Below, piece by piece: positions 17,201 to 52,559 of a DNA stretch of 64,000 nt. Numbering within the stretch: position 1 is the first letter of the stretch; the number at the start of each line of letters is the position of its first letter. Both the position numbers and the translations under genes were made by a program. The stretch is from positions 307,720 through 371,719 of the forward strand of contig JAKAGM010000002.1 of the NCBI GenBank assembly GCA_021815445.1, given 5' to 3'. The notes under the pieces are model-generated. The model was not told the origin of the DNA and made no database searches. It saw nothing but the letters and a program-made list of their open reading frames with translations. This DNA comes from a bacterium (GTDB taxonomy: Bacteria; Patescibacteriota; Patescibacteriia; UBA10025).

Positions 17201-17274
17201 GGCAGGGTAGCTCAGCTGGTTAGAGCGTGGGACTCATAAGCCCAAGGTCGTGGGTTCGACCCCCACCCCTGCTA
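17201..17274 (+). tRNA. tRNA-Met elongator or tRNA-Ile2 (anticodon CAT), no encoded CCA
   Basis: Cloverleaf with a C11:G24 pair. T-arm GTGGGTTCGACCCCCAC. Anticodon loop contains CAT. Confidence 0.7.
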
Positions 17275-17298
17275 TAAGCTCCCTCACACAGTAATTGC

Positions 17299-17334
17299 CA
17301 GCCCCCTATCATAAAAATCATAAGGGCTGTTTTA
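17299..17334 (+). terminator. Hairpin + T-run after the tRNA pair (start of structured unit 1)
   Basis: CAGCCC, a 19-nt loop, GGGCTG, then TTTTAG. Confidence 0.5.
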
Positions 17335-17470
17335 GCATATTGGGGCCGAAGGGCAGAAGCGATCCTGAGTGGAACGAAGGAGAGCGCCGACGAATGCGAA
17401 CGAGTGCAGTATTCGGCGCTGCCCGGGACAGACCCCCACCCCTACTACCAACCACGTACGAAATAATTGC

Positions 17471-17505
17471 CAACCTTCTTTTTCAGCGCGCGAAGGTTGT
17501 TTTGG
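17471..17505 (+). terminator. Second hairpin + T-run (start of structured unit 2)
   Basis: CAACCTTC, a 13-nt loop, GAAGGTTG, then TTTTGG. The flanks resemble those of the first hairpin: TAATTGCCA(G/A)CC before it, GTTTTnGCAnATnGGGGnCGAAG after it. Confidence 0.5.
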
Positions 17506-17790
17506 CACATGGGGGTCGAAGCCGACCCGAACGCGCCGTAGGCGATGAAGTGAGGGCGGCAGGCTTCGGATGAGACCGAGGAATATCGCGATGAGGTCGA
17601 GGGAAAAGGATCCTCACCTCTGTTACAAACAATCCCTCTGTGAAATACCCCCCTGCTGTCTCAAGCATACGGAGGATGTTTTTGCATAAAAAAAGAAAAA
17701 GCGCTTTGTGATTGATTTCGTATACTACGAATTCACAAAGCGCTACAGTGCCAAACTACTGGTCGATGTGTGGAGCTGTTTGTTCATGGG

Positions 17791-18663
17791 TCAGAACCCA
17801 ATGGCGATAAGGATGACTCCAATGATACCGCCGAAAATGACAAGAAGCTCTTTCCGCGACATCGTACGGGCTTCGCCAAAGAACACCATGGCAGTGAACA
17901 CGGGAATGCACATTTCAGCAACCAGCTGTATCGGTTGTGCGACGGTGTTGGGCAACAGTTCGCGTATCCAATATGACATCATCAGCGATGTCCATATTCC
18001 CCCGGCGAGGAGAAACACCTTTGACCGTTGGACCAGCGTTAGCGGTGGCCCAGCCTCATGGGGCCCGATGAGCACAAAGCGCGTCAACAGGGCTCCGCAC
18101 CAGGCGCCGAAATACCACGCGACGACGTAGGTCGGCATACTCAGCCCTTGCAGCGAGAAATAGCGCATGGAGAAAATGGCAACTCCCCAGATCGTGCTGT
18201 AGCCGATCACCCAGCCGATGAGTCGGACGGGCGCCCCGTCTTTTTTCTGCTTGATCTTCGCAAAGACAATTGCGCTGACGAGGCACAGGATGACACCGGC
18301 AGCGAGCAGGGGGGTAAGTACGCGTAGTTCGCCTAGCAGAAGGTATCCGAGTGCCATGGCTAGTAGGTCATCGAGGTTGCTCATCACCGCTGTTCGCGCC
18401 ATCGAGATGTCGTACGCGCGCCAGTGGCAGTAACATGCAAACGCATTCGCCGCGCCGATGACTGCAACGACAAGTGTCGTCATGTTTATCGCGATCCGTC
18501 CGGCAATCACTGCTGTTGCTATAGCAAGTAAGGCCGCGAAGAAGTACTGCCACACGAGTTTCCGTGTGCGCGACCCTTCGACAGCCCCTATCCTCTTGAT
18601 GGCTATATGCACGAGGCCGTATTGGTACAGGACCGCCATACACACCAGAAGCTTCCAGTTCAT
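17791..18663 (-). CDS. EamA/DMT-family (drug/metabolite transporter) 10-TM membrane protein
   Basis: Ten hydrophobic segments in two 5-TM halves. No catalytic motif. Confidence 0.6.
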   Translation of the reverse strand: MNWKLLVCMAVLYQYGLVHIAIKRIGAVEGSRTRKLVWQYFFAALLAIATAVIAGRIAINMTTLVVAVIGAANAFACYCHWRAYDISMARTAVMSNLDDLLAMALGYLLLGELRVLTPLLAAGVILCLVSAIVFAKIKQKKDGAPVRLIGWVIGYSTIWGVAIFSMRYFSLQGLSMPTYVVAWYFGAWCGALLTRFVLIGPHEAGPPLTLVQRSKVFLLAGGIWTSLMMSYWIRELLPNTVAQPIQLVAEMCIPVFTAMVFFGEARTMSRKELLVIFGGIIGVILIAIGF

Positions 18664-18844
18664 GGCTATTCCTTCCTTTCAAGGTTCAATGTTATTTTCA
18701 GACAATGCTTCAGCACTGCTGAGATTTTTAACAACACCCAAAAACGAGTCCTTTATCTTAGACGATAATCTACAAATGTCAAACTGTGTGCCCGATTTGT
18801 GTATAACAAAATAATCCCGTTCATTACGACGTTGACAGCAATTG

Positions 18845-18882
18845 CCGAAGGTGGGAGTCGAACCCACAAGAGGTTGCTCTTA
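18845..18882 (-). pseudogene. Orphan 3' fragment of a class-II (long variable arm) tRNA
   Basis: Minus-strand reading ataAGAGcaacCTCTTgTGGGTTCGACTCCCACCTTCGGCA. This gives a variable-arm hairpin, a T-arm and a 7-nt acceptor 3' strand plus discriminator A. No matching 5' half is adjacent. Confidence 0.45.
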
Positions 18883-18962
18883 TGCGATTTTGCCATGAAC
18901 CAGAGCAGGGCTCGGTTCATGGCATCCTGAACCGGACTTCGTTCTGGTTCAGGGTGAGTCCT
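18883..18962 (-). repeat. Double-hairpin element, copy A (~80 nt)
   Basis: Identical to copy B at 19357-19436 except for 3 substitutions. On the minus strand it forms two hairpins, CCTGAACC-12nt-GGTTCAGG and GCCATGAACC-12nt-GGTTCATGGC. It ends in 8 nt of tRNA-Leu anticodon-stem sequence (AGGACTCA). Confidence 0.7.
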
Positions 18963-18984
18963 ATACGGTATCTTCCCCCATCTC

Positions 18985-19068
18985 TGCCGCGGGAGAGAAT
19001 CGAACTCTCATGATGTTGCCATCGCAGGATTTTGAGTCCTGTGCGTCTGCCAGTTCCGCCACCGCGGC
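18985..19068 (-). tRNA. tRNA-Leu (anticodon CAA), intact
   Basis: Acceptor GCCGCGG/CCGCGGC, anticodon loop CTCAAAA, long variable arm GATGgcaaCATC, T-arm GAGAGTTCGATTCTCTC. The flanks are complementary: a 10-nt leader CCCCATCTCT pairs with the trailer AGAGATGGGG. Confidence 0.85.
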
Positions 19069-19086
19069 AGAGATGGGGCAAGCGCT

Positions 19087-19350
19087 TTACAAGTACTTTT
19101 GGAGGGTCTCACGGAGTACTAGTCGTAAAGTTTTCTTTCCTTTCGTTGTTTTAAAATACTGCTCCCGACGCCATGCGTCAGCTCTATGGGAAAATGCCTC
19201 GTAGAAAATTAGCCTCACCGGTCGTCGATTCTTAGTAGAATCTACTTTACCATCTTTATGCTCTTTTAGTCTACGTTCAAGTTTATCAGTAAATCCAATG
19301 TAAAACTTTCCATCTTTAAGACTCAAGAGAATATAGACATAATATGTCAT
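19087..19350 (-). CDS. GIY-YIG nuclease-domain protein (YhbQ/UPF0213 type, 87 aa)
   Basis: YVYILLSLKDGKFYIGFTDKLERRLKEHKDG ... RRPVRLIFYEAFSHRADAWRREQYFK matches the GIY-YIG fold with the conserved Arg and Glu. Confidence 0.8.
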   Translation of the reverse strand: MTYYVYILLSLKDGKFYIGFTDKLERRLKEHKDGKVDSTKNRRPVRLIFYEAFSHRADAWRREQYFKTTKGKKTLRLVLRETLQKYL

Positions 19351-19356
19351 AGGTGT

Positions 19357-19436
19357 TGCGATTTTGCCATGAACCAGAGCAGGGCTCGATTCATGGCACC
19401 CTGAACCGAACTTCGTTCTGGTTCAGGGTGAGTCCT
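19357..19436 (-). repeat. Double-hairpin element, copy B (~80 nt)
   Basis: 97% identical to copy A. One substitution converts a stem G-C pair to a G-U pair. It abuts the duplicated tRNA-Leu 5' half. Confidence 0.7.
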
Positions 19437-19465
19437 GTGCGTCTGCCAGTTCCGCCACCGCGGCA
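19429..19465 (-). pseudogene. Duplicated 5' half of tRNA-Leu(CAA) (nt -1 to 35), fused to element copy B
   Basis: 37 nt identical to 19033-19069. It ends inside the anticodon (..GGACTCA) and then continues into the hairpin element. Confidence 0.7.
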
Positions 19466-19556
19466 TAAGAATACACCGCATTGTAACGAGTTTACTTTTG
19501 TTTGTCAAAGCTCCTTTTTTTCGCTATACTGTGCGTACATTTTCTTTTGACAACGT

Positions 19557-20321
19557 ATGCCACGGATCATTTCAGTCGTGAATCAAAAAGGGGGAGTGGG
19601 AAAGACGACAACCTCTGTTAATCTTGCCAGCTACCTCGCATCATTCGGGGAGTCAGTCCTGCTCGTCGACATCGATCCTCAGGGGAATGCATCATCGGGT
19701 ATGGGAGTAGATGTGCGATCGATTACTCACGGAGTGTATGAAGTATTAATCGGTATCGCCTCGCTCCCGGATGTCTTGCACCATGCGTCCGTCGGGGGTC
19801 TTCATATTGCTCCGGCGACACTCAATCTTGCAGGTGCCAATGTGGAGCTTGTCAATTTGCCCCAGCGGGAGTATCGCCTGCATGATGCGTTAAAAGGCAA
19901 GATTGACAGCTACAATTATGTCATCATCGACTGTCCGCCTTCACTCGGACTTCTCACTATTAACGGCATCGTGGCTTCAGACGAAGTGCTGATTCCTGTT
20001 CAAACAGAATATTACGCGTTGGAAGGGTTAAGCCAGCTTTTGAACACGATAAAGCTCATTCAAGACAATCTCAAGCCCGATCTTAAGATCCTCGGCGCCG
20101 TGATGACTATGTACGACAGCACATATAGGCTTACGGAGGCTGTGTTCCGTGAAATGTATCAGTTTTTTCCTCAAAAAGTTTTTCGCACAGTGATCCCCCG
20201 GAATGTCCGCTTAGCAGAAGCGCCGAGCCACGGCAAAACAATTCTCCAATATGATCCTCGATCTCCCGGCGCGCGGGCGTATCGCCGCCTGGCGAAGGAG
20301 ATACATCATTCAGCCAAATAA
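19557..20321 (+). CDS. parA: ParA/Soj chromosome-partitioning ATPase
   Basis: Deviant Walker A NQKGGVGKTTTSVNLA. Confidence 0.9.
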   Translation: MPRIISVVNQKGGVGKTTTSVNLASYLASFGESVLLVDIDPQGNASSGMGVDVRSITHGVYEVLIGIASLPDVLHHASVGGLHIAPATLNLAGANVELVNLPQREYRLHDALKGKIDSYNYVIIDCPPSLGLLTINGIVASDEVLIPVQTEYYALEGLSQLLNTIKLIQDNLKPDLKILGAVMTMYDSTYRLTEAVFREMYQFFPQKVFRTVIPRNVRLAEAPSHGKTILQYDPRSPGARAYRRLAKEIHHSAK

Positions 20322-41456: not shown

Positions 41457-44400
41457 TTGCGTTTCATCTCTCTAGGACAATTTAAGGAAAAAATCAAGCG
41501 AAACAAAAGGTTTGATTTTCGCTCTCTTCCGAAACTCCTCAGTCTCGAACAAGTGAGCGAGATTCTTGGCGTCCATCAAAATACCCTCCGCAACTGGGAC
41601 AACATCGGCAAGCTGAAATCTGTCAGGATTGGAAAGCGCCATGACAGGAAGTACGAACGTGATCGGATCGAGAAACTTTTCCTCGACATGCGCGCCTCAC
41701 AAGCAGGGGCAAAGAGAGACGCCCAGAAAAACGGAAAGAAACATAGGCGAGGCGCGGAGCGCAGGAATGAAGGCCCGCTTCTCGGCTTTTGGCTGATAGG
41801 GAATGTCCGTTCAGTGATCATCTATGGCCTTCTCGGATTGGTGGTTTTCTTTTTTTCTGTCCAGAACATGTCGCTTGGCAAGATACTCTTTGCCAGAGCG
41901 GAGAATGATGCGCTAGTAACCATGCGGCTACAGTCGGCAGATTGTTCCGGATGGCTCAATCCAGAAAAAGCAAGGTTTATCGACGCACTCGCGAAGACTC
42001 CGCTCGATGAATTCCTTGAGACCAATTCCGCGGTGTACTCAAATCAATTTGCTTTCCGCAGTGCAGGCCCCCCCGCGCTTAATGAAGTGCCCGGCCAGCC
42101 CGTGCAGCCCGAGAATACAGCGGCAAACACCAGCGCCGCACCGGTAAATGATGCGGCGGCTCCTCCCGCCAACACTGCTCCCGCACCCGTTCCATCCGCC
42201 GATCCTGCCCCGGCTTCTTCTGACCAGACGGCTCAGGTCAATCCGCAATTAATATGCCAGGGATATACGTTCGACCAGCCGGTCCCTGACGGTTCTCGCT
42301 TAGAAAAAGCGACCCTCGTAGTCTCGTTCGCGGCTGACACCTTTGCAAACAACGAAGACGTCGTTGATTTTTCTTACTCGTTCAACGGCAAGGACTGGAA
42401 GAAGCTCAGTTCTTTTGCCCTGCTCCAGGATATGAGCAATGCGACAAATGACGGCTACTTGTCCTATCCCATCGAAGTAAGCTCCTTCGATGATATTAAA
42501 AACCTCTCTGTCCGCGTCGACTACAACGCCTTTCCCGCGACTCAAGGTTCGAGAGCTTTTTTCGACGGCGCGGCGCTTGATGTCCTCATCCGCAAGCCCC
42601 CCCCTCCGAAGCTCGCGAATGAACTTACGCAAAGCACGACAATCGTAAAAGCCGACGTTGCCCCTTCAGAGGATCCGACGCTTGACGTCACAGTCGAAAA
42701 AAAATCAACCCTCGACTTCCTCGGGGTCGGTCCCACCACGCGCGACGTCCAGTCTGTGACAATCACCGATCCCGGCGGCAATACTAAGACAGTGAATCTT
42801 GATATCCAGGATAAGCAGGTAGGAAAGAATACCGTGGCTCAATATGTTATCCCAAAAGAAGATCTCTCCAGGCCTGGTCTCTATAAGGTGAGCATGCAGG
42901 TAGAACAGGACGGGTATATCCAAGAGGTTTCAAAAGAATTCAGCTGGGGAGTCATCGCAGTCAACGTGAGGTCCTCGGTCATCGAACCGGATACGTACAC
43001 CGAAGTCGGAATGTCGGTCCTCGATGACTTTGGGCACGCGCAGTGCGCCGCTTTCATCGAGGTGACGGTGCGCCATCCGGGAAATTTTGTGGAAAAATTC
43101 TCCACAACTGATAAAACAGTGGTAAAAAATCCCACCTGCAAGGACCAAAGTGTAACAAATGAGCCGGATTATTCGGCATTTTTTACCACAACGACAGTGG
43201 GGAAATATACCGTCGACGTTACGGCTACAACAGAGAAGGGGACGCACACCATTTCCGATTCTTTTGAAGTGAGAAGCAATCCGCAGTTTACCATCGAAAG
43301 GACTGAGTTTCCTACGCGCATTTTCCCTTTTGTGGATTACCCGGTCAAATTCACCGTCACCTCTCAGCAGGATTTCACGGGGGTCTTTATGGAAAAAGTC
43401 CCTGTCGGTTTCCAGATTTACGATATCACTCAGCGCGGGGCGGAGCTTGGCGGAAGTAACGACCCGCAGTATAAAGTCATCACCTGGCCGGTCGCTCTCA
43501 CCGCGGGGAAGCCGTACACGCTCGGGTACACGTTCAATCCCCCCGACCAGGTGCCTTTTCTGTATAAACTCGGGCCGGCAAATATCGGTAATTTTACGGA
43601 AGCCCGCCAGTGGCAGATTGCGTCTGATGCGGCATGCTCGTCCGCAGGATCCGGTGCCTGGACCACGACAGCCACCTGGTCTGGGTGCAGGGTAGGCGGA
43701 CCCATTGCCGGCGATACCGTACAGATTAATTCCGGGCACATGATTACGATTTCAAACAGTACCGCGGTAGCTGCAGCAAGTGTCACCATTATCACGAATA
43801 ACAGCGCCACGGTGAACGGTCTTACGTTCGGAAACTCGGGTTCTTCATTGGCTATTACTGGCGCCATTACCATCCCTGCGGCCACGGCGTCGGGCGGATC
43901 GCTCGTTGCCGTAGATGCCGGAAGCATTACCACTACAAGCGGGACCAGTTCAGTGTCCATATCAGGCGCAGCGGCGCTGACCAGTATTTTTAGAATTAGT
44001 ACAGGGTCTGTTACTTTGACTGGTGGCGTTACATTTGGTGGCACGCAATCGAATGCGCAGCTCACATTCACAGGCGCCGGTTCACTGACTATCGGGGCCG
44101 GCATGGGTACCGGAGGTACGTTTACCAAGAGCACGAGCACGGTCACCTTCAACGGCACCGGAGCGCAGAATATTACCGGGTATAACTACAACAACCTGGT
44201 GGTCAATAACGCCGGCTTGACGCTCACAACGGTTCAGGATGGCGCTAATACATTCACGGTGGGCGGCACCACGACAATTACTGCCGGCACGCTGACCATG
44301 GGAAACTTCGCGCACACCTTTACCGGCGCGACCTCGGTTACAGGAACCCTGAACACAAGTGGCGGCACTACGGGTAATCGGACATTTACCGGGGCAGTAA

Positions 44401-47400
44401 CGGTTAATAGTTCCGGTACGTGGGATTTATCCGGGCAAAATCCGGCGACAATTTTCGCAAACGGCATAACGGTCAGCACCGGGGCGACGTCATTCAATAA
44501 CGGCACCGGAACGGTAGCTTTTAACACAAATAACCAGGCGCTTGCGGGTTCCGTAGGTATGACTTTTGGCGGGACTGCGACTATAGCCAGCGGTGTTACA
44601 TTGACGAATAACAACACGGGCACGGTTAATTTCAGCGCGGCTACTAATTGCCTTACCGGCGCCAGCGCAACCTTATCGATTTTTACGACCGGGACCAATT
44701 CAACCACCCAATGCGCCAGCGCTCTTCTGGGTGCAGGCGGATCCAGCACCGGCTTGTTAAATCCTAGCGGTACCGGGAGCACAGTTGAGTACAACGGGGG
44801 CAGCCAGACGGTAAAAGCGCATAATAGTACGAATAATTATGTCAATATTAAGTTAAGCGGCTCAGGCACCAAGACGCTCACGACTACCGATGTTACGTAT
44901 ACCGGTAACTTCGATATTACCTGCTCGTCGGCCTGCTCGACTGCTCTTGTGGTCGCCAACACCGCTATCCAGGGTACCCTGACAGTCGGTGCAAACGCGA
45001 CCTTCACCGCCGGCGCATTCGCTCTCACGGTAACCGGGACCACCAATGTGCAAAATACCGGCGTTTTATCGATAACATCGGCCACCGGCACCAAGGCGTT
45101 TAACGGCGACGTCACAATCGACAACGGCGGGAGGTGGAGTGTCGCTATATCGGTCAACTTTACATTGCCGGGCAATTTGACAAACAACGGCACATTCACT
45201 CCCAGCACCGGCACCTATACGCTGTCAGGCGCAGGAAAAGCAATCTCCGGCACTTTTGCCAGCCCCTTTACCACCGTCACCCTCACCGGCGGCGGCGCTC
45301 AGAATAATGCGGGGACTTTTACAACGGCAACGCTGAATGTGAATGCCGCGTTTGCCAATACGGGAACGATTACTGTCACCTCGGCTTTGGCCGGGACAAA
45401 TACATTGACTAACAGCACGAATGGAAATTTGAATATTAATGTGGCGGCGGCGAGTTATACGCTCACCGGCCTTGCGGCAAGCGCCTCGGGTAATACAGTT
45501 TCATGGGGATTTGCCGGCGCGCAGACCGTCACTCCGTCGATTAGCTACTACAACCTTACTCTGGCCGGCAGTGGCGCCAAGACACTGACCAACGTAACTA
45601 CGGTTAGCAACAATCTCACTATGGCAGGTACAGCAACTGCCACTATTGTTACGGCCACCATGGCTATCGGCGGAGATTTGGTAGTGGGCGGAGGGACAAC
45701 TATCACTATCGGCGCCACTACGACTATCGGCGGCGGTGATATTACGACTTCCGGCACTTCGGCTACAGTGGGCACTTCAGGCACGCCGACAGTGACCATT
45801 TCCGGCACAGGGAGTCTCGGCGGCGGCACATCACCGGGCCTGACTTTTTACGACCTGACCATTTCTGGTACGCAGACTATCAACGACCCTTATGCCATGA
45901 CCATCAATCACACACTGACGGTCAACGGCACGCTTAACGGCACGGGAAGTCCCGCAACGCTGGGCAGTATCGTCGGTACGGGCACTATTACGATGGCCAG
46001 CCCGTCGGCGTGGCTCGTGTATCCAACTGCCTCAATTAATTTCGGCACCACTTCCGGCTCTACGGCATGGACATTCTATAGCATGACAGTGAGCGCCGTC
46101 CTTGCAAGCGCCGATGTCACTCTTACTACGCAGGCAGGCACCGGTGATATTACCTTTAATGGCACTTTGCAATTGTCCAGTTTTGGCGACTCGTTTTATA
46201 CCAATTTAAATGCCGGCGGCAGAAATTGGATTATGTCGGCTACGAATAATGCAAAGCCCTTTGAGCTCGATGTCGGCGGCGCCGGTGTCCTGATAGCCAG
46301 TACTTCTACGTTCCAATTTACGGGCAATAATGCCTCCGGCAATGTAACCCTGCAAAATGCCACATATAATAATCTGACTTTGGGCGGGGCATCCGCCGAA
46401 ACTTTTGACACTGAGGCCTCGCTGACGGTTTCCGGCACGCTGAACGTTGCCGCGAACGGCACTTTGGCCATCGGCAGTACGCACACCGTGACGCACAGCG
46501 GCGCCACATTGACCCTAGCCGGAATCATCTCCGGCGCCGGACGGCTGGCGTATCAGAGTGCCACGGCATTTCCTACTACGGGGACCATTTCATCGATCGT
46601 GCGATTCGATGCGACGAATAATGATCAAACAATGTCAGCCCGCACATACGGCGGCAACGTCGAGATTTACAACGTCAGCAGTTCATTTACGCGGGCCGTC
46701 ACCATGACCGCGACTGCTACCCAGGTGATCAGCGGCTCCCTAAGCATCAATGCCGCTGGAACTGCCGGGATCACCCTCGATGCATCGGTAAACAACCCGA
46801 CGGTCACTGTCGGGGGGAGTATCTCTTCAACAGCGGGCGGAGGGGGGCTTCAAGTGCTTTACGCAGGTACCGGCTCGTGGACTGTCGGCGCGAACTTCGA
46901 TATGACCAATATCCAGCTGACCGTAGGTACGGGAAACACGATTATAATGTCCGGTACGGGGACCTTTACTTCCGGTGGGTATAACATGCAAAATCTTACG
47001 CTCTCCGGAACTATTACACTTGCAAATGCCGCCCATACGGTATACGGCAACCTCGATATGACGGGGGGGACCATTACCGCCGGGACGTCAACAATGTATA
47101 TGAGAGGGACGGCAAATTTGGTTGGCGGCAACCAGAGTCTCTATAATCTGACCGCAAATGGTAACGCCAATACGCTGACCGTTACCTCCAATGTTACAGT
47201 GACGAATGTGTTGACTATCGGCTCGGTGGGGGACAACAACAACGATACGATGTCCATAAATGGCGGTATCAGCGTGACTTCCGGCACATCGGGTACCGTC
47301 ACGCTCTCGGGAAGCGGGACTGATACCATCTCCGGCGCGGGAACATTGGTAATGCAAAACTCCAACCTGAATACTCTCGGCGTTCTCTCTTCGAAGGTGA

Positions 47401-50400
47401 GATTCGATGCGACCAGCGGCGACATCAACATGCCTGCCCGCACGTACGGCGGCGCCGTAGAGATTTATAACAATCATGCAACCACTGCCCGCGTCGTCAC
47501 CATGCTCGCAACCGCCACGCAGACTCTTTCCGGCGATCTGACGGTCATCGCGGCCAACGGCGGTGACATCACTCTTGCCGGAGCTACATATAATCCTACC
47601 GTCAGCATTACAGGCAGTGTTGCATTTACCAAGAGCAGTACCGGAACGCCTATTATTACCACGGGCACTGGTACGTGGACAGTGGGCACAACGCTTGATT
47701 TGACCAACGGTACGTTTACCGCTGCGGCAACCAATACCGTGCTCATGGGCGGCACCGGCAATCTGATCGGAGCCGGCCAAACATTAATTAACCTCACGAT
47801 TGACGGAAACGGCAACACCGTTACCATAACTACTTCGGATATATCCGTCAGCGGGACGCTCACTATCGGCGGAGCGGCAGACGGTAATAACGATACGCTG
47901 TCGATAGGCTCGGGCAGGCTTGTCACCTCCACGTCCGCAGGCACTGTTACGCTTATTGGCAGCGGCACTGACACCATTTCCGGTACGGGGACTCTTGTCG
48001 TAAAAAACAATAATTTAGGCACGGCTGGGACACTCTCTGCTCCCGTCAGATTCGATGCGACAGCGGCAGATCTGACTATGCCCGCACGGACGTATGGGGG
48101 TGATGTGACAATTTACACATTTAAAGTTGTTGTCGATCGTACGGTTACTATGTCAGCAGGGACATATATCATCTCAGGAAACTTGGACATGAATCCTAAT
48201 AATCCTCAGGGAGGTGTGCGGGCATTAACGCTGGATGCCGCAACAAATGATCCCGCAGTAAATGTCACCGGAAACGTTACAAATTCAGAAACAGGGGTTC
48301 TGGGGTACTCGATTATATTAGCTGGAGCAGGTACATGGACGATTACGGGGTATGCAAATTTTCAAAGTCAATGGGGAACAGGAACTGATTTTTTAACCGA
48401 AACAAACAGCACGCTTGTGATGAACGGGACCTCAAAAACGCTGTACCCGGGCAACAACTTGACTCTGTATAATTTTACTAGCGGGGGCACAATCGCTGCC
48501 TCAGGCATGACTGTAAGTAATACTCTGTTGATATCTTCTGGTACATTAACTATGGATATGACTCTCTTGACCGTGGGGAACAACTTTACTAATAATGGCG
48601 CCTATACGGCTAGCTCAGGCACTGTAAATATGACCGGTACCAGCGGCTCCATAGGCGGATCGGCCTCCACGACATTTTATAACCTTTTGATTAATGGGAC
48701 GAATATCACAACTACGGTGAATACGAGCGCAACGGTAAGCGCTACGCTTACCGTCGGCGCCGCCGGCGACGGTAACAACGACGAGCTCTCTATCGCGAGC
48801 GGCAAGACGCTAACGTCCGCGACTACGGGCACCGTGACGCTCATCGGAAGCGGAACGGACTCAATCACGGGCTTAGGCACGTTAGTCGTGAGAAATTCGA
48901 ATTTAGAAGCCACCAATGGCACTATTTCCGCCAACGTCCAATTCAACGCATCGAGCGGGAGTATTAACATGCCTGCGCGGTCATACGGCGGAAATGTGGA
49001 AATATACAGCTCCGGAATATTGCCGCGCACGGTTACTATTGCATCATCCGGGACAGTCAACATCACCGGAAATCTTACCGTTACTGACGCCGGAACCGGT
49101 GTGTCATTGTCCGGGATGAACAATCCCACTGTGAATATCACCGGCAGCATAAATCCGTGTAATCCAGCCACCGACGCATTTATTACGACCGGAACCGGCG
49201 TATGGACGGTCTCTGCCGGCGCGGACTTTACTCTGTGCTCGCTTACTGCGACAAGCGGCAATACCCTCGTGATGAATGGCGCCGGCACGCTGAGAACCTC
49301 TGTAAATACCCTGCAAAATCTGACGCTCTCCGGTACAATAACCCTCGCCAATGAGGTAGAGACCATCGCAGGCAATCTCGACATGACCGGCGGAACGATT
49401 ACTCCCGGCACATCCACCATAGTAATGACCGGGACTAAAGATCTGATTGGTGGAAGCCAGACTCTTAATAATCTCACCATTAACGGAGTCAACACTACAG
49501 TCACAGCAAAGACTTCGAATCTCAGCGTCTCCGGCACCCTGACGATTGGCGGCGCAGCTGACGGCGATAACGACACATTCACGATCAACAGCGGTATCGC
49601 GGTAACCTCGGGAACTGCAGGTACCGTAACGCTCGTCGGCAGTGGCACCGACTCAATCACCGGTGCGGGAACACTCACTGTTCAAAATTCCAACCTTGGC
49701 ACAGGCGGGGTATTGTCCCCGATAGTACGGTTCGATGCCACAAACGGGGATATCGCAACGATGCCTGCGCGCACATACGGCGGGTTAGTGGAAATTTACA
49801 ACGGCCACGCCAGCACGGCGCGCACAGTGACCATGAGCGCTCTAGCCACCCAGACTCTCTCGGGAAACTTAAGCGTCATTGCAAATAGCGGAGGCAACAT
49901 CACGCTTATCGGCGCTCTAAACAATCCGACAGTCAACATCACCGGCGGCGTTTCGTTCGCCAAAAATAGCACGGGCACTATCACCGTCACTTCGGGCACG
50001 GGCACATGGAGCGTCGGCGGAGCAGTGAACTTTACCAACGGCACCTACACGGCGGCAACTGGTAATGTATTGGCGATGAGCGGCTCTGTCAATCTGATCG
50101 GGAACGGCCAAAGTCTCTATGACCTGAACGTGAACGGGACGACCAATACTGTCACGGCGACGACATCGGACGTCAGCATCGCTGGAACGCTCACGGTGGG
50201 ATCGGGCAACATATTGTCGATTGCATCCGGCCGCACGGTAACATATTCCGGGAGCGGGAATGTCGCCGGTACAGGTACTATCAGCGGCGCCGGAACCATT
50301 ACCTTTACTGATACATCCGGCGGTCCGGGGACGGCACTTACTACCCTGAGCGCTGTCTCGCGCTATGACGCGACAAACGGCAATATCGCCTCCACGACAT

Positions 50401-52559
50401 TGGATGCGAGGACGTACGGAGCAAGAGTTGAGATCTACAGCAATAGCACGACGGCGCGCACAGCTACCTTCGCGACTGGCACATATACGCTCTCCGGCGC
50501 ATCGTCACATCTCTACGTCATTGCCGACGGAGCATCTCCGGGTGATGTCACGCTTATCGGCGCCACGAATAATCCCACGGTAACTATAGGCGGAGATCTT
50601 GATTTCACCGGTGTGGGTACGGCAAGTGAAGCGATCACTTCGGGCACGGGGATATGGACGGCGTCAGGCAATGTGAATTTCACTGACGGCACGTACACGG
50701 CCACGGCGGGCAATACCCTCGTGATGAACGGCACATCAAAGACGCTTACCAGCGCATCACAGACGCTCTATAATGTCACGCTCTCAGGTTCCATCACCCT
50801 CGCAAATGCTACGCACACCATAGCGGGCAACCTTGACATGACCGGCGGCACAATTACCGCGGGAACGTCCACAGTGACGATGACCGGCACGTCGAATACC
50901 CTGAAGGGCGGCGGGAACACGCTGGCAAGTCTCACTATTGACCCTCCATCTGCGGGCACGATTACGCTCTCGACGTCAACGCTTGGCGCGGGAAATGTAT
51001 CGGTAGGCACGAATGGCATACTTGCCGGAACGGTTGATGTTACAGTGACGGGCAATGTTACCGGCGGCGGCGCTATCACTCTCACCGGCGGCACCTTCAA
51101 ACAGCTGGTGAATGCCACAAAGACATTTGGCACCGATGTCGCGTCTGCCAACGACTGGACATTCTATAATCTTTCTTTTGAGGCTGCGAGTACGACAAAG
51201 ACTATTACCTTTAACGGCACGGGAACAGGAAAAATTATCGCTACCAACGATTTAGCGACGGTCTTTAACACGGGATCTGTCGTTGTCGACGACGCAACGA
51301 ATGACCGTATCCTCCAGGTGAATGGGAACGTCAGCATTGTATCAAATACCGAGTTAAAAGCTCCCCCGGCAGCAGCTTTCTCTGTGGCCGGCAATTGGAC
51401 AAACGCGGGTACTTTTACCCCCGGGACCGGAACGGTCACATTCAATGCAACCACCGGAACAAAAACAATTGATACAAGTGCGGCCGCGGCGGGGAATTTC
51501 GGAAATGTTGTGCTGAACGATGGGGTAGGAAACGCGACGTTCCAAATTGCCAATGGGCCGATTACCGTGAATAACAATCTCACGATTACCCATGGGACGC
51601 TTGATACCGGCGCCGCGGGAAACTATGGGATCACTATCGGAGGTAATTGGACCAACAACGGAGTTTTTACGGCAAATAGCGGTCTCGTCACAGCAAATGG
51701 TACCAGCCAGCAGACATTTTCCGGGACGATGACGGGCAGTTCAAAGTTCAACAATCTGACCATTACCAATGTTTCCGGGACTGATCCCGATACCTCACCC
51801 TCGGTGATATTCGGTTCGAGTGCGCAGACCGGGGGCACGTTCACGGCAGCCACGGCCAACACGAAGCTCAGGTTCCTCGCAGGCGGCACCTTCACTTTCC
51901 AGAATATCAGCTTCAACGGCCAGGCAACGGGCACAAGAGTGTCGCTCCGCTCCTCCACATACGGGAGCGTGTGGAATATCAATGTCGCCGGCACGCGGAG
52001 CGTGTCGAATACCAATGTTGAAGATTCCGACGCCTGCGGGCAGGCGCCCGACATCGACGCATCAGATGGGACGAACGTCGATAAAGGCAACAACCATTGC
52101 TGGGATATCAACAGGATATCAGTGTCGCTCTCGGCCAATACAATCAACTTAGGCACCCTGAGCACGAGCACGGTGTCGCAGGGCTCCATGATTTCTACTG
52201 TGACGACAAATGCGCCCGACGGGTATGTCAGCGTTATTTACGATACCCAGGACTTCTCGACGGTAGGAGGGGGGACTATTGCGGATGCCGGCGGTTCTAT
52301 TACTAACGGCACCGCGGGGTACGGAGTATCGAGCTCCATGGCGAGCCAAACGGTTGCCCAGACGACGGGAGCATGTTCATCAGGCGCAGGGACCTTTAAT
52401 GCAACGAGCCTCACCGCGACTCCGCAGACATTCGCGTCGAGTGCCAGCGCTGTTACAGGCCAAGCGACGACGCTCTGTTTCCTGGCGACCCCGAGCGGCA
52501 CCACCGAAGCCGGCGGATACTCTGATACGGCGACTCTGGTGACCACAGGGAGGTTCTAG
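41457..52559 (+). CDS. Giant (3700 aa) membrane-anchored surface protein: N-terminal excisionase/MerR-type HTH, one TM, a Thr/Gly/Asn-rich beta-helix-like repeat region, and a conserved C-terminal domain ending LVTTGRF
   Basis: A continuous ORF whose track start is a TTG codon. The HTH_17-like segment is LSLEQVSEILGVHQNTLRNWDNIGKLKSVRIGKRHDRKY. A basic stretch then precedes the TM helix LLGFWLIGNVRSVIIYGLLGLVVFFF. At least six ~270-aa repeats carry the motif ARTYGG(N/A/D)VEIY. Confidence 0.7.
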   Translation: MRFISLGQFKEKIKRNKRFDFRSLPKLLSLEQVSEILGVHQNTLRNWDNIGKLKSVRIGKRHDRKYERDRIEKLFLDMRASQAGAKRDAQKNGKKHRRGAERRNEGPLLGFWLIGNVRSVIIYGLLGLVVFFFSVQNMSLGKILFARAENDALVTMRLQSADCSGWLNPEKARFIDALAKTPLDEFLETNSAVYSNQFAFRSAGPPALNEVPGQPVQPENTAANTSAAPVNDAAAPPANTAPAPVPSADPAPASSDQTAQVNPQLICQGYTFDQPVPDGSRLEKATLVVSFAADTFANNEDVVDFSYSFNGKDWKKLSSFALLQDMSNATNDGYLSYPIEVSSFDDIKNLSVRVDYNAFPATQGSRAFFDGAALDVLIRKPPPPKLANELTQSTTIVKADVAPSEDPTLDVTVEKKSTLDFLGVGPTTRDVQSVTITDPGGNTKTVNLDIQDKQVGKNTVAQYVIPKEDLSRPGLYKVSMQVEQDGYIQEVSKEFSWGVIAVNVRSSVIEPDTYTEVGMSVLDDFGHAQCAAFIEVTVRHPGNFVEKFSTTDKTVVKNPTCKDQSVTNEPDYSAFFTTTTVGKYTVDVTATTEKGTHTISDSFEVRSNPQFTIERTEFPTRIFPFVDYPVKFTVTSQQDFTGVFMEKVPVGFQIYDITQRGAELGGSNDPQYKVITWPVALTAGKPYTLGYTFNPPDQVPFLYKLGPANIGNFTEARQWQIASDAACSSAGSGAWTTTATWSGCRVGGPIAGDTVQINSGHMITISNSTAVAAASVTIITNNSATVNGLTFGNSGSSLAITGAITIPAATASGGSLVAVDAGSITTTSGTSSVSISGAAALTSIFRISTGSVTLTGGVTFGGTQSNAQLTFTGAGSLTIGAGMGTGGTFTKSTSTVTFNGTGAQNITGYNYNNLVVNNAGLTLTTVQDGANTFTVGGTTTITAGTLTMGNFAHTFTGATSVTGTLNTSGGTTGNRTFTGAVTVNSSGTWDLSGQNPATIFANGITVSTGATSFNNGTGTVAFNTNNQALAGSVGMTFGGTATIASGVTLTNNNTGTVNFSAATNCLTGASATLSIFTTGTNSTTQCASALLGAGGSSTGLLNPSGTGSTVEYNGGSQTVKAHNSTNNYVNIKLSGSGTKTLTTTDVTYTGNFDITCSSACSTALVVANTAIQGTLTVGANATFTAGAFALTVTGTTNVQNTGVLSITSATGTKAFNGDVTIDNGGRWSVAISVNFTLPGNLTNNGTFTPSTGTYTLSGAGKAISGTFASPFTTVTLTGGGAQNNAGTFTTATLNVNAAFANTGTITVTSALAGTNTLTNSTNGNLNINVAAASYTLTGLAASASGNTVSWGFAGAQTVTPSISYYNLTLAGSGAKTLTNVTTVSNNLTMAGTATATIVTATMAIGGDLVVGGGTTITIGATTTIGGGDITTSGTSATVGTSGTPTVTISGTGSLGGGTSPGLTFYDLTISGTQTINDPYAMTINHTLTVNGTLNGTGSPATLGSIVGTGTITMASPSAWLVYPTASINFGTTSGSTAWTFYSMTVSAVLASADVTLTTQAGTGDITFNGTLQLSSFGDSFYTNLNAGGRNWIMSATNNAKPFELDVGGAGVLIASTSTFQFTGNNASGNVTLQNATYNNLTLGGASAETFDTEASLTVSGTLNVAANGTLAIGSTHTVTHSGATLTLAGIISGAGRLAYQSATAFPTTGTISSIVRFDATNNDQTMSARTYGGNVEIYNVSSSFTRAVTMTATATQVISGSLSINAAGTAGITLDASVNNPTVTVGGSISSTAGGGGLQVLYAGTGSWTVGANFDMTNIQLTVGTGNTIIMSGTGTFTSGGYNMQNLTLSGTITLANAAHTVYGNLDMTGGTITAGTSTMYMRGTANLVGGNQSLYNLTANGNANTLTVTSNVTVTNVLTIGSVGDNNNDTMSINGGISVTSGTSGTVTLSGSGTDTISGAGTLVMQNSNLNTLGVLSSKVRFDATSGDINMPARTYGGAVEIYNNHATTARVVTMLATATQTLSGDLTVIAANGGDITLAGATYNPTVSITGSVAFTKSSTGTPIITTGTGTWTVGTTLDLTNGTFTAAATNTVLMGGTGNLIGAGQTLINLTIDGNGNTVTITTSDISVSGTLTIGGAADGNNDTLSIGSGRLVTSTSAGTVTLIGSGTDTISGTGTLVVKNNNLGTAGTLSAPVRFDATAADLTMPARTYGGDVTIYTFKVVVDRTVTMSAGTYIISGNLDMNPNNPQGGVRALTLDAATNDPAVNVTGNVTNSETGVLGYSIILAGAGTWTITGYANFQSQWGTGTDFLTETNSTLVMNGTSKTLYPGNNLTLYNFTSGGTIAASGMTVSNTLLISSGTLTMDMTLLTVGNNFTNNGAYTASSGTVNMTGTSGSIGGSASTTFYNLLINGTNITTTVNTSATVSATLTVGAAGDGNNDELSIASGKTLTSATTGTVTLIGSGTDSITGLGTLVVRNSNLEATNGTISANVQFNASSGSINMPARSYGGNVEIYSSGILPRTVTIASSGTVNITGNLTVTDAGTGVSLSGMNNPTVNITGSINPCNPATDAFITTGTGVWTVSAGADFTLCSLTATSGNTLVMNGAGTLRTSVNTLQNLTLSGTITLANEVETIAGNLDMTGGTITPGTSTIVMTGTKDLIGGSQTLNNLTINGVNTTVTAKTSNLSVSGTLTIGGAADGDNDTFTINSGIAVTSGTAGTVTLVGSGTDSITGAGTLTVQNSNLGTGGVLSPIVRFDATNGDIATMPARTYGGLVEIYNGHASTARTVTMSALATQTLSGNLSVIANSGGNITLIGALNNPTVNITGGVSFAKNSTGTITVTSGTGTWSVGGAVNFTNGTYTAATGNVLAMSGSVNLIGNGQSLYDLNVNGTTNTVTATTSDVSIAGTLTVGSGNILSIASGRTVTYSGSGNVAGTGTISGAGTITFTDTSGGPGTALTTLSAVSRYDATNGNIASTTLDARTYGARVEIYSNSTTARTATFATGTYTLSGASSHLYVIADGASPGDVTLIGATNNPTVTIGGDLDFTGVGTASEAITSGTGIWTASGNVNFTDGTYTATAGNTLVMNGTSKTLTSASQTLYNVTLSGSITLANATHTIAGNLDMTGGTITAGTSTVTMTGTSNTLKGGGNTLASLTIDPPSAGTITLSTSTLGAGNVSVGTNGILAGTVDVTVTGNVTGGGAITLTGGTFKQLVNATKTFGTDVASANDWTFYNLSFEAASTTKTITFNGTGTGKIIATNDLATVFNTGSVVVDDATNDRILQVNGNVSIVSNTELKAPPAAAFSVAGNWTNAGTFTPGTGTVTFNATTGTKTIDTSAAAAGNFGNVVLNDGVGNATFQIANGPITVNNNLTITHGTLDTGAAGNYGITIGGNWTNNGVFTANSGLVTANGTSQQTFSGTMTGSSKFNNLTITNVSGTDPDTSPSVIFGSSAQTGGTFTAATANTKLRFLAGGTFTFQNISFNGQATGTRVSLRSSTYGSVWNINVAGTRSVSNTNVEDSDACGQAPDIDASDGTNVDKGNNHCWDINRISVSLSANTINLGTLSTSTVSQGSMISTVTTNAPDGYVSVIYDTQDFSTVGGGTIADAGGSITNGTAGYGVSSSMASQTVAQTTGACSSGAGTFNATSLTATPQTFASSASAVTGQATTLCFLATPSGTTEAGGYSDTATLVTTGRF
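46600..50500 (+). repeat. Tandem ~640-890-nt coding repeats inside the giant gene
   Basis: The ARTYGGxVEIY-containing units recur at about 46631, 47444, 48083, 48975, 49762 and 50407. Confidence 0.6.

Follow-up and report, generated by a model that had tools for sequence, protein, structure and literature searches.

The Ssn enzymes are single-domain GIY-YIG nucleases of about 94 amino acids; they bind to hairpin repeats on either side of the gene that encodes them, and cut the adjacent single-stranded DNA (ssDNA) (PMC11893778, Nat Commun 2025). A locus with a similar layout, but joined to a tRNA-Leu(CAA) gene, lies in a 64,000-nt stretch of a patescibacterial genome (GTDB lineage Bacteria; Patescibacteriota; Patescibacteriia; UBA10025; assembly GCA_021815445.1, contig JAKAGM010000002.1, positions 307,720 to 371,719), which was analysed as a whole and is hereafter called the window. 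We consider it probable, with moderate confidence, that a small selfish cassette, composed of one or two perfect hairpins of the type CCnTGnACC...GGTnCAnGG and a GIY-YIG gene of about 87 codons, has colonised the tRNA-Leu(CAA) gene at this locus. Members of this family occur joined to tRNA genes of Patescibacteria, Planctomycetota, Omnitrophota and further phyla, and their usual site is the discriminator base or CCA end of a complete tRNA; in some lineages it is a 7-nt loop, either the T-loop (TTCG/A, the slash marking the junction) or the look-alike anticodon loop (CTCA/A in Leu-CAA; also Gln-CTG). We infer cleavage by the nuclease and mobility of the cassette, the latter from its distribution.

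With regard to Ssn, the window protein is alike in size (about 90 residues), in consisting of the GIY-YIG domain alone and in having Tyr, Tyr and Glu at the same positions (Y6, Y17 and E63, compared with Y6, Y17 and E64 in SsnA), and its gene is also flanked on both sides by hairpin repeats of 20–50 nt, in an ‘IS-like’ repeat-gene-repeat order with conserved nucleotides at the hairpin foot. However, the consensus of the Ssn repeats (SRM, HGTCWYN(0-2)YYVSBRHN(0-5)WNVSBRGN(0-2)RNCYNB) had 0 matches in the 500-nt flanks of 80 loci of the window type, these cassettes are joined firmly to tRNA genes, parts of the tRNA being duplicated, and in sequence the protein comes closest to UPF0213, the likeness to Ssn being drawn from architecture. 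The preliminary description of this DNA had called the arrangement undocumented. This does not hold for a GIY-YIG gene flanked by hairpin repeats, which was published in 2025 for Ssn (PMC11893778), but it does with regard to tRNA, which that paper never mentions. No description of small GIY-YIG cassettes attached to tRNA genes was found in the searchable literature, which is not proof of absence, and the locus represents one case of a tRNA-attached variant of the hairpin plus mini-GIY-YIG theme that is widespread and, it appears, undescribed.

The UPF0213/YhbQ/YazA proteins (PDB 1zg2 and 1ywl; bacterial Slx1-like) are the best sequence match and share size and single-domain build with the window protein, whose clade differs from them in its signature YFKTTKGK, its hairpin modules and its tRNA attachment. 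The phage T4 enzyme SegB, a GIY-YIG homing endonuclease, acts in a tRNA gene cluster and produces 2-nt 3′ overhangs (PMC2330249); the resemblance lies in a nuclease gene placed among tRNA genes and inherited by co-conversion of flanking tRNA sequence, and a 2-nt staggered cut would fit the 2–3-nt junction repeats described below. SegB and I-TevI, however, are phage-encoded and have a C-terminal DNA-binding domain, whereas the window protein has only 87 residues, is chromosomal and is accompanied by hairpins; furthermore, an insertion may here be located within the tRNA gene itself, where a duplicate compensates for it. The group I introns that occupy position 35/36 in patescibacterial tRNA genes (PMC13011429, mSystems 2026) share with the locus the phylum, the nominal anticodon-loop position and the interruption of a tRNA gene by a selfish insert, but the window locus has no ribozyme or productive splice product, and the tRNA is rescued by a duplicated copy. 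Similarly, integrase-type tRNA islands insert in a tRNA gene, regenerate the intact gene and leave an orphan fragment at the other boundary. The unit seen here is only about 0.4–0.7 kb, lacks an integrase, can duplicate either the 5′ or the 3′ part of the tRNA and has its breakpoints in 7-nt loops. No tyrosine or serine recombinase is present between the tRNA fragments in the window, where the only domain-bearing open reading frame (ORF) is the GIY-YIG gene, and no HUH (Y1) transposase of the IS200/IS605 or REP/RAYT type was found next to the hairpins of the window or at those loci for which genes had been called.

The locus occupies the minus strand and is read here 5′ to 3′ from 19508 down to 18843 of the window, in the order promoter, tRNA-Leu(CAA) 5′ half, hairpin unit B, GIY-YIG gene, intact tRNA-Leu(CAA), hairpin unit A and orphan tRNA 3′ half (Table 1). 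All the parts listed in the preliminary description were found again, including the complete identity of the 5′ half to the intact gene over 37 of 37 positions when the −1 base is counted (19429–19465). The 5′ half is at its native position, because the relative L215 (relatives are cited by our locus labels, L and a number) has the same promoter and tRNA without the cassette, and this native tRNA-Leu promoter now probably drives the 5′ half, the hairpins, the GIY-YIG gene and the tRNA. In our reading, unit B, a 10-nt loop remnant and the nuclease gene are followed by a regenerated tRNA-Leu, which is the functional copy, and unit A with the orphan 3′ half is what remains of an older insertion of this kind into an earlier tRNA-Leu allele. 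The orphan 3′ half begins with the same 10 nt that make up the remnant behind unit B. A feature missed previously is a 14-nt inverted repeat around the intact tRNA, which lengthens its acceptor stem to 21 bp. Such an extension could possibly have arisen where a broken tRNA end was copied by fold-back synthesis of DNA, or could be a processing stem; the intact tRNA-Leu of the relative L216 has a 9-nt acceptor-stem extension of another sequence (cactaccca / tgggtagtg).

Table 1. Components of the tRNA-Leu(CAA) locus in window coordinates, listed in the direction of transcription
Feature	Coordinates	Strand	Remarks
Sigma-70-type promoter, TTGACA-17-TACAAT	19480..19508	-	11/12 consensus matches; native tRNA-Leu promoter
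tRNA-Leu(CAA) 5′ half, positions 1-35, ending ...GGACTCA within the anticodon	19429..19464	-	Native position, 3′ of the promoter
Hairpin unit B: CCCTGAACC...GGTTCAGGG, then TG, then CCATGAATC...GGTTCATGG; CA on both sides	19367..19428	-	CCnTGnACC/GGTnCAnGG family
10-nt remnant ‘caaaatcgca’	19357..19366	-	Anticodon loop (3′ side) of a tRNA-Leu, with the stem strand of an allele of TGCGA/TCGCA type
Gene for an 87-aa single-domain GIY-YIG nuclease, UPF0213/YhbQ-like	19087..19350	-	PF01541, E = 5e-16
Inverted repeat, left arm cttgccccatctct, extending the acceptor stem of the intact tRNA	19069..19082	-	21 nt, 95% complementary; fold z = -7.2
Intact tRNA-Leu(CAA), no encoded CCA	18985..19068	-	ARAGORN and Rfam, 56 bits; called at 18984-19069
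Inverted repeat, right arm gagatgggggaag	18972..18984	-	Extends the acceptor stem of the intact tRNA
‘aggactca’ (8 nt) plus hairpin unit A, older copy; stem 1 weakened by 2 substitutions	18893..18962	-	Repeat and fold analysis
Orphan tRNA-Leu 3′ half: CA, AAATCGCA, variable arm, T-arm, acceptor strand CTTCGGC and A	18843..18892	-	Relic of an earlier GCCGAAG-type allele

The two hairpin units belong to a direct repeat of 85 nt with 94% identity (5 differences in 85 positions; 18883–18967 versus 19357–19441), which includes tRNA-derived flanks, ‘aggactca’ on the left and ‘caaaatcgca’ on the right. What had been described as a structured 80-nt element corresponds to two hairpins of the CCnTGnACC...GGTnCAnGG family; both the 3 differences within the 80-nt core and the presence of two hairpins per copy were confirmed, the latter with DNA z-scores of −5.9 and −6.5, far better than those of shuffled controls. 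With regard to the substitutions, one is a G-T/G-C change that keeps the pair, as stated earlier, but the remaining two disrupt pairing in stem 1 of copy A. Three changes between copies, two of them breaking pairs, cannot show selection on an RNA fold, as had been proposed. The junction after tRNA position 35 is the same at both copies, but its exact place is ambiguous by the CA that is present on both sides (gactCA[CC...GG]CAaaatc). A search with the hairpin pattern returned 4 hairpins in the 64-kb window, with 0 expected by chance, all of them at this locus, so the further element copies that the preliminary description had asked about were not found elsewhere in the window. Unit A together with the orphan 3′ half is old, because an orthologue is shared with L216 (2320–2433; 79% over 114 nt including ‘caaaatcgca’, with no GIY-YIG gene beside it). 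Unit B, whose identity to A is 94%, was either copied recently or is a gene-conversion partner.

The encoded protein matches PF01541 over residues 3–73 of its 87 residues, and the sole other Pfam match is a weak, overlapping one to T5orf172 over the same stretch. The catalytic-type residues Y6, Y17, R27, H31 and E63 are invariant across 25 homologues, and the protein looks functional as judged from its sequence. Its earlier assignment to the YhbQ type was borne out, with matches to the UPF0213 structures 1zg2 and 1ywl (BH0048 and EF2693; phmmer E = 1.2e-10 and 3.7e-10) and an hhalign probability of 98% against UPF0213 (43% identity over 65 columns), while the clade carries its own signature, YFKTTKGK. 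TIGR01453 is matched only over residues 5–35 and below its cutoff (23.7 versus 56 bits), and there was no meaningful match among the PADLOC defence models. In a neighbour-joining tree of the 87-aa proteins, which is too weakly resolved to tell vertical from horizontal descent, the window protein groups with those of the Gln-CTG anticodon-loop cassettes.

The attachment to tRNA genes is a property of the whole clade. Relatives of the GIY-YIG gene were confirmed at 507 loci in species-representative genomes, and the gene context was read at the best ~80 of these (79–81, depending on the analysis). Homologues with 55–71% identity occur in lineages of the Candidate Phyla Radiation (CPR), Planctomycetota, Omnitrophota, Verrucomicrobiota, Nitrospirota, Zixibacteria and others, and the clade is also present in complete genomes (e.g. 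CP070678.1 and CP070839.1). Across phyla the identity is 55–68%, which fits horizontal spread. With an attached tRNA defined as one on the same strand that lies at most 400 nt upstream or begins just past the stop codon, 53 of the 79 best loci had a directly attached tRNA, and tRNA density was 1.37 per kb in this attachment zone compared with 0.048 per kb over the remainder of these loci; among the first four long-contig homologues that were checked, all four had a same-strand tRNA 100–250 nt upstream. Many different tRNA identities are represented. Two arrangements can be distinguished, namely class I (about 44 loci), in which a complete tRNA is followed by hairpins and then by the nuclease gene, and class II (about 12 loci), in which the nuclease stop codon lies 1–18 nt ahead of a complete tRNA. 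An encoded CCA end was present in 35 of 46 upstream cassette-bearing tRNAs versus 20 of 44 other tRNAs in the same regions, which is suggestive of a cassette-borne feature, albeit confounded by tRNA type.

A metagenome-assembled genome (MAG) of Uhrbacteria carries two cassettes, 3′ of tRNA-Gln(CTG) and of tRNA-Gln(TTG), and the nuclease parts are more alike (92% identity) than the tRNAs themselves (87%). The similarity of the pair begins at the tRNA 5′ end and stops about 10 nt past the nuclease stop codon, giving a cassette unit of ~0.55 kb. As a separate observation, L027 (a MAG labelled ‘Patescibacteria’) and L037 (a MAG labelled ‘uncultured Gammaproteobacteria’) are 71% identical over 1.9 kb around the cassette including flanking genes, a likeness that points to a binning or label error rather than to transfer.

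Hairpins of the CCnTGnACC...GGTnCAnGG family are concentrated around the gene in the loci read, at 1.88 per kb within 330 nt of it versus 0.10 per kb elsewhere (about 19-fold), and a hairpin lies upstream of the gene in 53 of 81 loci. The most frequent cores were GAACC (46), GTACC (13), AAACC (11), GCACC (9) and GAACT (8). In the great majority of the 46 cases with an upstream tRNA, the junction is stereotyped as tRNA-N73-CCA/TGNACC…GGTNCATGG; that is, in class I the 5′ arm of the stem begins at N73/CCA of the tRNA (...N73-CCA/TGAACC...) and the 3′ arm ends with the complement of N73, as in one locus where the tRNA 3′ end is joined to CCATGAACC hairpins. Sense-strand mismatches in 107 family hairpins comprised 26 G-T and 18 A-C, about equal numbers; there is no wobble bias, and the palindromes are equally compatible with a role at the DNA level. 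Hairpins on both sides of the gene occur in the window (units B and A) and also in L031, L020 and L086.

Partial tRNA copies follow the same two classes. In class II, a copy of the 5′ part of the downstream tRNA sits upstream of the hairpins and ends either with GGTTCG in the T-loop (L016, Gln; L063, Ser; L076, Tyr; L078, Ile) or in the anticodon (Leu-CAA in the window, L047, L048 and L088; Gln-CTG in L079, from Planctomycetia, and L091). The Leu-CAA architecture, composed of a 5′ half ending ...GACTCA, CC(A/C)TGNACC hairpins, a short loop remnant, the GIY-YIG gene and an intact tRNA, is complete in L048 and L088, and in L047 (Saccharibacteria) the contig ends inside the GIY-YIG gene. Six loci besides the window, from different lineages, share its anticodon-loop architecture (Leu-CAA or Gln-CTG). 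In class I, the partial copies comprise the 3′ end of the tRNA from the T-loop or its vicinity onwards, and lie downstream of the gene in L014, L019, L025, L034, L056 and L086. Wherever hairpins are internal to a tRNA and the contig continues, an intact tRNA copy is found on the other side of the gene. Internal units are flanked by the same 2–3 nt, after which the tRNA sequence resumes for 7–10 nt: the junction repeats are ctCA[..]CAaaatc in the window, L047 and L088, ttCG[..]CGagtcc in L016 and L076, and ctCTG[..]CTGgatc in L079 and L091, and loop remnants like that of the window are caaaatcgt (L047), caaaatca (L088), ctggatc (L079) and cgagtcc (L016). The complement of the target stands between the two hairpins, namely TG for CA, CG for CG and CAG for CTG. 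This layout, which can be written X–hairpin 1–X′–hairpin 2–X and in which the stems are extended by target-derived bases, was noted in L016, L047, L076, L079, L088, L091 and the window (19365–19430), and could have a guide-like role or be a trace left by the chemistry of insertion. The sequence CTCAAAA of the Leu-CAA anticodon loop is similar to TTCGAAT of the T-loop (YTCRA in common), and this likeness may be the reason that insertion in this tRNA affects the anticodon loop.

In order to place the locus among its relatives, related genomes were reached via ParA homologues; they represent different species, not strains. The comparison for an uninterrupted locus yielded L215 (Kerfeldbacteria, ParA 70% identical) as a clean empty site, in which an intact tRNA-Leu(CAA) with 95% identity comes immediately after the same promoter and no cassette is present. 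The promoter plus 5′ half of the window align with promoter plus tRNA of L215 at 78% over 116 nt, and the intact tRNA-Leu of the window is 95–96% identical to those of L213 and L215. L213, the closest relative (ParA 80% identical), also lacks the cassette. The same ParA-adjacent tRNA-Leu(CAA) is filled in L088 (Uhrbacteria) and L028 (Parcubacteria) as well as in the window, and L028 carries hairpin arrays; a distribution over filled and empty sites is again reminiscent of homing endonucleases, albeit here among species rather than strains. In L216 (ParA 69%), pieces of tRNA-Leu are separated by hairpin elements, and a frameshifted GIY-YIG remnant lies directly behind the tRNA-Met (cat) gene at 1766–1842. 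The earlier proposal of an anticodon-loop-targeting mobile element with a GIY-YIG endonuclease is thus supported by recurrence in other lineages, by the tRNA attachment of the clade and by the empty site of L215.

Further tRNA debris was observed in the neighbourhood. In L213, the tRNA-Leu(CAA) gene (2809–2894) is inverted and joined to a tRNA-Met pair, and in the window a 290-aa membrane-protein ORF without a Pfam domain (17791–18663) lies between tRNA-Met and the tRNA-Leu locus; the tRNA-Met/tRNA-Leu region is a rearrangement hotspot. At 17258–17625 on the plus strand of the window, the 3′ end of the second tRNA-Met, GACCCCCACCCCTGCTA, recurs at 17431–17447 (94%, then CCA) and at 17609–17625 (76%). 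The copies are spaced by 173 and 178 nt, as tandem units of ~175 nt with each orphan fragment starting in the T-loop, and tblastn of this region (17258–17625) revealed no GIY-YIG remnant. Tracts of unrelated sequence, hairpin-type or structured, interrupt tRNA-Leu 5′ fragments upstream of the intact gene in two relatives, on the minus strand in both cases: an insert of ~150 nt in L214 (2740–2905) and, in the D-loop region, a CCCCGTAAA...TTTACGGGG element in L216 (2740–2870), neither of which had an Rfam match at E ≤ 0.1. In the metagenome contig L194 (around position 779), the 3′ portion of a tRNA-Leu(CAA), from about the D-stem and with a T-arm and acceptor of the window type, is preceded by non-tRNA sequence, and this may be another truncated or invaded tRNA-Leu. 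Elsewhere in the window, a single plus-strand ORF (41457–52559) encodes a giant protein of 3700 aa.

The colonisation of the tRNA gene by the cassette could proceed as follows. Modelled on the Ssn nucleases, the enzyme would recognise the hairpins and/or the tRNA-gene loop as DNA and make a break with a stagger of 2–3 nt, and the 2–3-nt junction repeats would then reflect a staggered cut like that of GIY-YIG homing enzymes. The cassette would be copied in with conserved tRNA sequence as homology anchor, and would be expressed by read-through from the tRNA promoter.

Several observations weigh against this reading. GIY-YIG enzymes only hydrolyse DNA, so the insertion step would need host repair, and no cleavage, excision or insertion event was observed in the sequences compared. 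About one third of the loci have no adjacent tRNA, although some of these have short flanks or interrupted genes. Units A and B are both chimeric, with the left flank of the current allele type and the right flank of the old one, and no single-step history that was sought for the order 5′ half, unit, GIY-YIG gene, tRNA, unit and orphan 3′ half explains the chimeric flanks of both. Breakpoints are not uniform either: those of the 3′ fragments scatter over tRNA positions ~52–62, and the hairpins of L020 occupy other positions of the anticodon arm. As to the nuclease, its nearest relatives by sequence, UPF0213/YhbQ, form a possibly housekeeping family; with 87 residues it lacks a separate DNA-binding domain, unlike classical homing endonucleases; and the hairpin units yield no match to the published Ssn consensus. 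Finally, the clade is essentially absent from viral contigs (IMG/VR) and plasmids, and no cross-phylum vector was found; the plasmid and phage searches returned only UPF0213-type genes of 35–45% identity, typical examples of which showed no hairpin or tRNA context in the match tables.

A bolder version, which we put forward only tentatively and with less confidence than colonisation as such, regards the cassettes as a hitherto undescribed class of selfish elements, autonomous and specialised on tRNA genes, which copy themselves and rebuild the tRNA from a partial copy that they carry. The nuclease would cut either at the discriminator base or in a 7-nt loop (the T-loop or the similar anticodon loops of Leu-CAA and Gln-CTG), there behind the conserved T of the U-turn. 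The 2–3 nt at the hairpin foot (X′) are the complement of the target X and may serve the element as a guide of its own. The element would then copy itself in via conserved tRNA homology, rebuild the tRNA from the carried partial copy and use the tRNA promoter.

Among the alternatives to colonisation by a selfish cassette, a host function is the strongest, although we regard it as unlikely. In that case, the small GIY-YIG protein would be a resident, vertically inherited enzyme coupled to tRNA genes in processing, repair or DNA maintenance, the hairpins would be transcript signals (a processing site, a 5′ stabiliser of the mRNA or an attenuator) and the tRNA fragments by-products of recombination between hairpins. 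Co-transcription from the tRNA promoter would offer an obvious route of expression, the hairpin includes N73/CCA, which would be relevant to 3′-end processing, and UPF0213 relatives are known fused or adjacent to tRNA methyltransferases (PMC1564403); moreover, the protein is conserved with its catalytic residues intact, and its clade is chromosomal, not viral or plasmid-borne. These points contrast with the patchy presence at one and the same locus in close relatives (L213 and L215 empty; the window, L028 and L088 filled), the many tRNA identities involved, the pseudogenised copies and orphan hairpin and tRNA relics, and the identity of 55–68% across phyla. Furthermore, the two copies within one genome are more alike than their tRNAs, insertions in tRNA loops destroy a gene copy, the hairpin wobble pairs show no sense-strand bias and the characterised Ssn enzymes do not bind RNA (PMC11893778).

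Somewhat less probable still is that the hairpins are generic, similar to repetitive extragenic palindromes (REP) or miniature inverted-repeat transposable elements (MITE), and were moved by an unrelated enzyme, by slippage or by fold-back repair, with the GIY-YIG gene as a passenger at a hotspot. Hairpin units do occur without an adjacent GIY-YIG gene (unit A with the 3′ half in the window and in L216; the arrays of L028), unrelated hairpin-type insertions are present in tRNA-Leu fragments of L214 and L216, orphan tRNA-Met 3′ fragments in the window have no GIY-YIG gene at all, and the stems run into their flanks (X/X′, the 21-bp acceptor stem) in a manner that resembles fold-back synthesis. 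A mere passenger, however, is difficult to reconcile with the ~19-fold enrichment of the hairpin family right beside the GIY-YIG clade across phyla and the upstream hairpin in 53 of 81 loci; in addition, the ~0.6-kb units contain no transposase, integrase or HUH gene, and the pairing of hairpin and nuclease has a biochemical precedent in Ssn (PMC11893778).

The preliminary description had also considered an intron or a split tRNA, in which the 5′ half and the orphan 3′ half would be exons of one tRNA-Leu, spliced or assembled in trans with the hairpins as splicing or pairing structure. Two facts suggest it: the junction lies at 35/36, the site reported for group I introns that Patescibacteria carry in their tRNA genes (PMC13011429), and the acceptor strands of the two halves could pair with one mismatch and one G-U, as had been claimed. 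The claim fails at the anticodon stem, since CAGGA and TCGCA cannot pair; the TCGCA strand of the orphan half fits another tRNA-Leu allele (TGCGA, as in L047) and not the upstream 5′ half (CAGGA). In agreement with this, ARAGORN calls no tRNA in the spliced product of the 5′ half and the orphan 3′ half, while the control of the 5′ half with the real 3′ half is recognised as tRNA-Leu. No Intron_gpI match was obtained at E ≤ 10 in 18600–19700, and Rfam searches at the gathering threshold and at E ≤ 10 returned only tRNA at the locus, with no intron, ribozyme or known small RNA, and the same at six homologous loci. The intact tRNA-Leu(CAA) lies within the would-be intron, whose two ends are direct duplicates of one another rather than complementary, so that the locus also differs from split or permuted tRNAs; the same hairpins follow the 3′ ends of complete tRNAs, where there is nothing to splice, and L088 and L048 have no downstream 3′ half whatsoever. 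An intron or split tRNA is therefore already contradicted and effectively excluded.

Nor is the orphan 3′ half ‘diverged’, as it had been termed: its last 25 nt are identical to canonical bacterial tRNA-Leu 3′ ends (32 of 120 metagenome matches), and it is a genuine tRNA-Leu end. The underlying metagenome scan used a permissive, degenerate pattern aimed at the tRNA end and not at the hairpin element, and returned mostly canonical tRNA-Leu of unrelated bacteria, none of them with a GIY-YIG gene or the element.

The weakest explanation, an assembly artefact in which misjoined reads at repeats created the duplication, can be set aside: the locus is indeed broken into a 594-bp contig in L039 (a GTDB species representative labelled Candidatus Nomurabacteria) and repeats trouble assemblers, but the identical sequence is present in both loci that were read, from two NCBI MAG assemblies, L001 (a 359-kb contig) and L002 (an 854-bp contig that runs from the first copy through the GIY-YIG gene and the intact tRNA into the second copy, most of which it includes before it ends), the exact GIY-YIG protein is recorded on 9 contigs, the copies differ at 5 of 85 positions and the same architecture occurs in unrelated lineages.

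If the cassettes are indeed selfish elements of tRNA genes, they would constitute a parasite of these genes across species-representative genomes (507 loci of relatives), including the genome-reduced CPR bacteria. Alongside self-splicing introns and integrases, they would represent a third route by which selfish DNA can reside in a tRNA gene without loss of the gene. An autonomous element would explain the spread across phyla without phage or plasmid vectors, and mini-nucleases of the Ssn/UPF0213 type would gain a role as mobility enzymes, as the engines of a mobile element of ~0.5 kb. The family would also yield a set of naturally matched hairpins and nucleases whose DNA targets are defined, of a kind already proposed as ssDNA tools. 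In the genomes that harbour it, orphan tRNA halves would be accounted for, as would tRNA genes that may be overlooked when CPR genomes are annotated by standard means.

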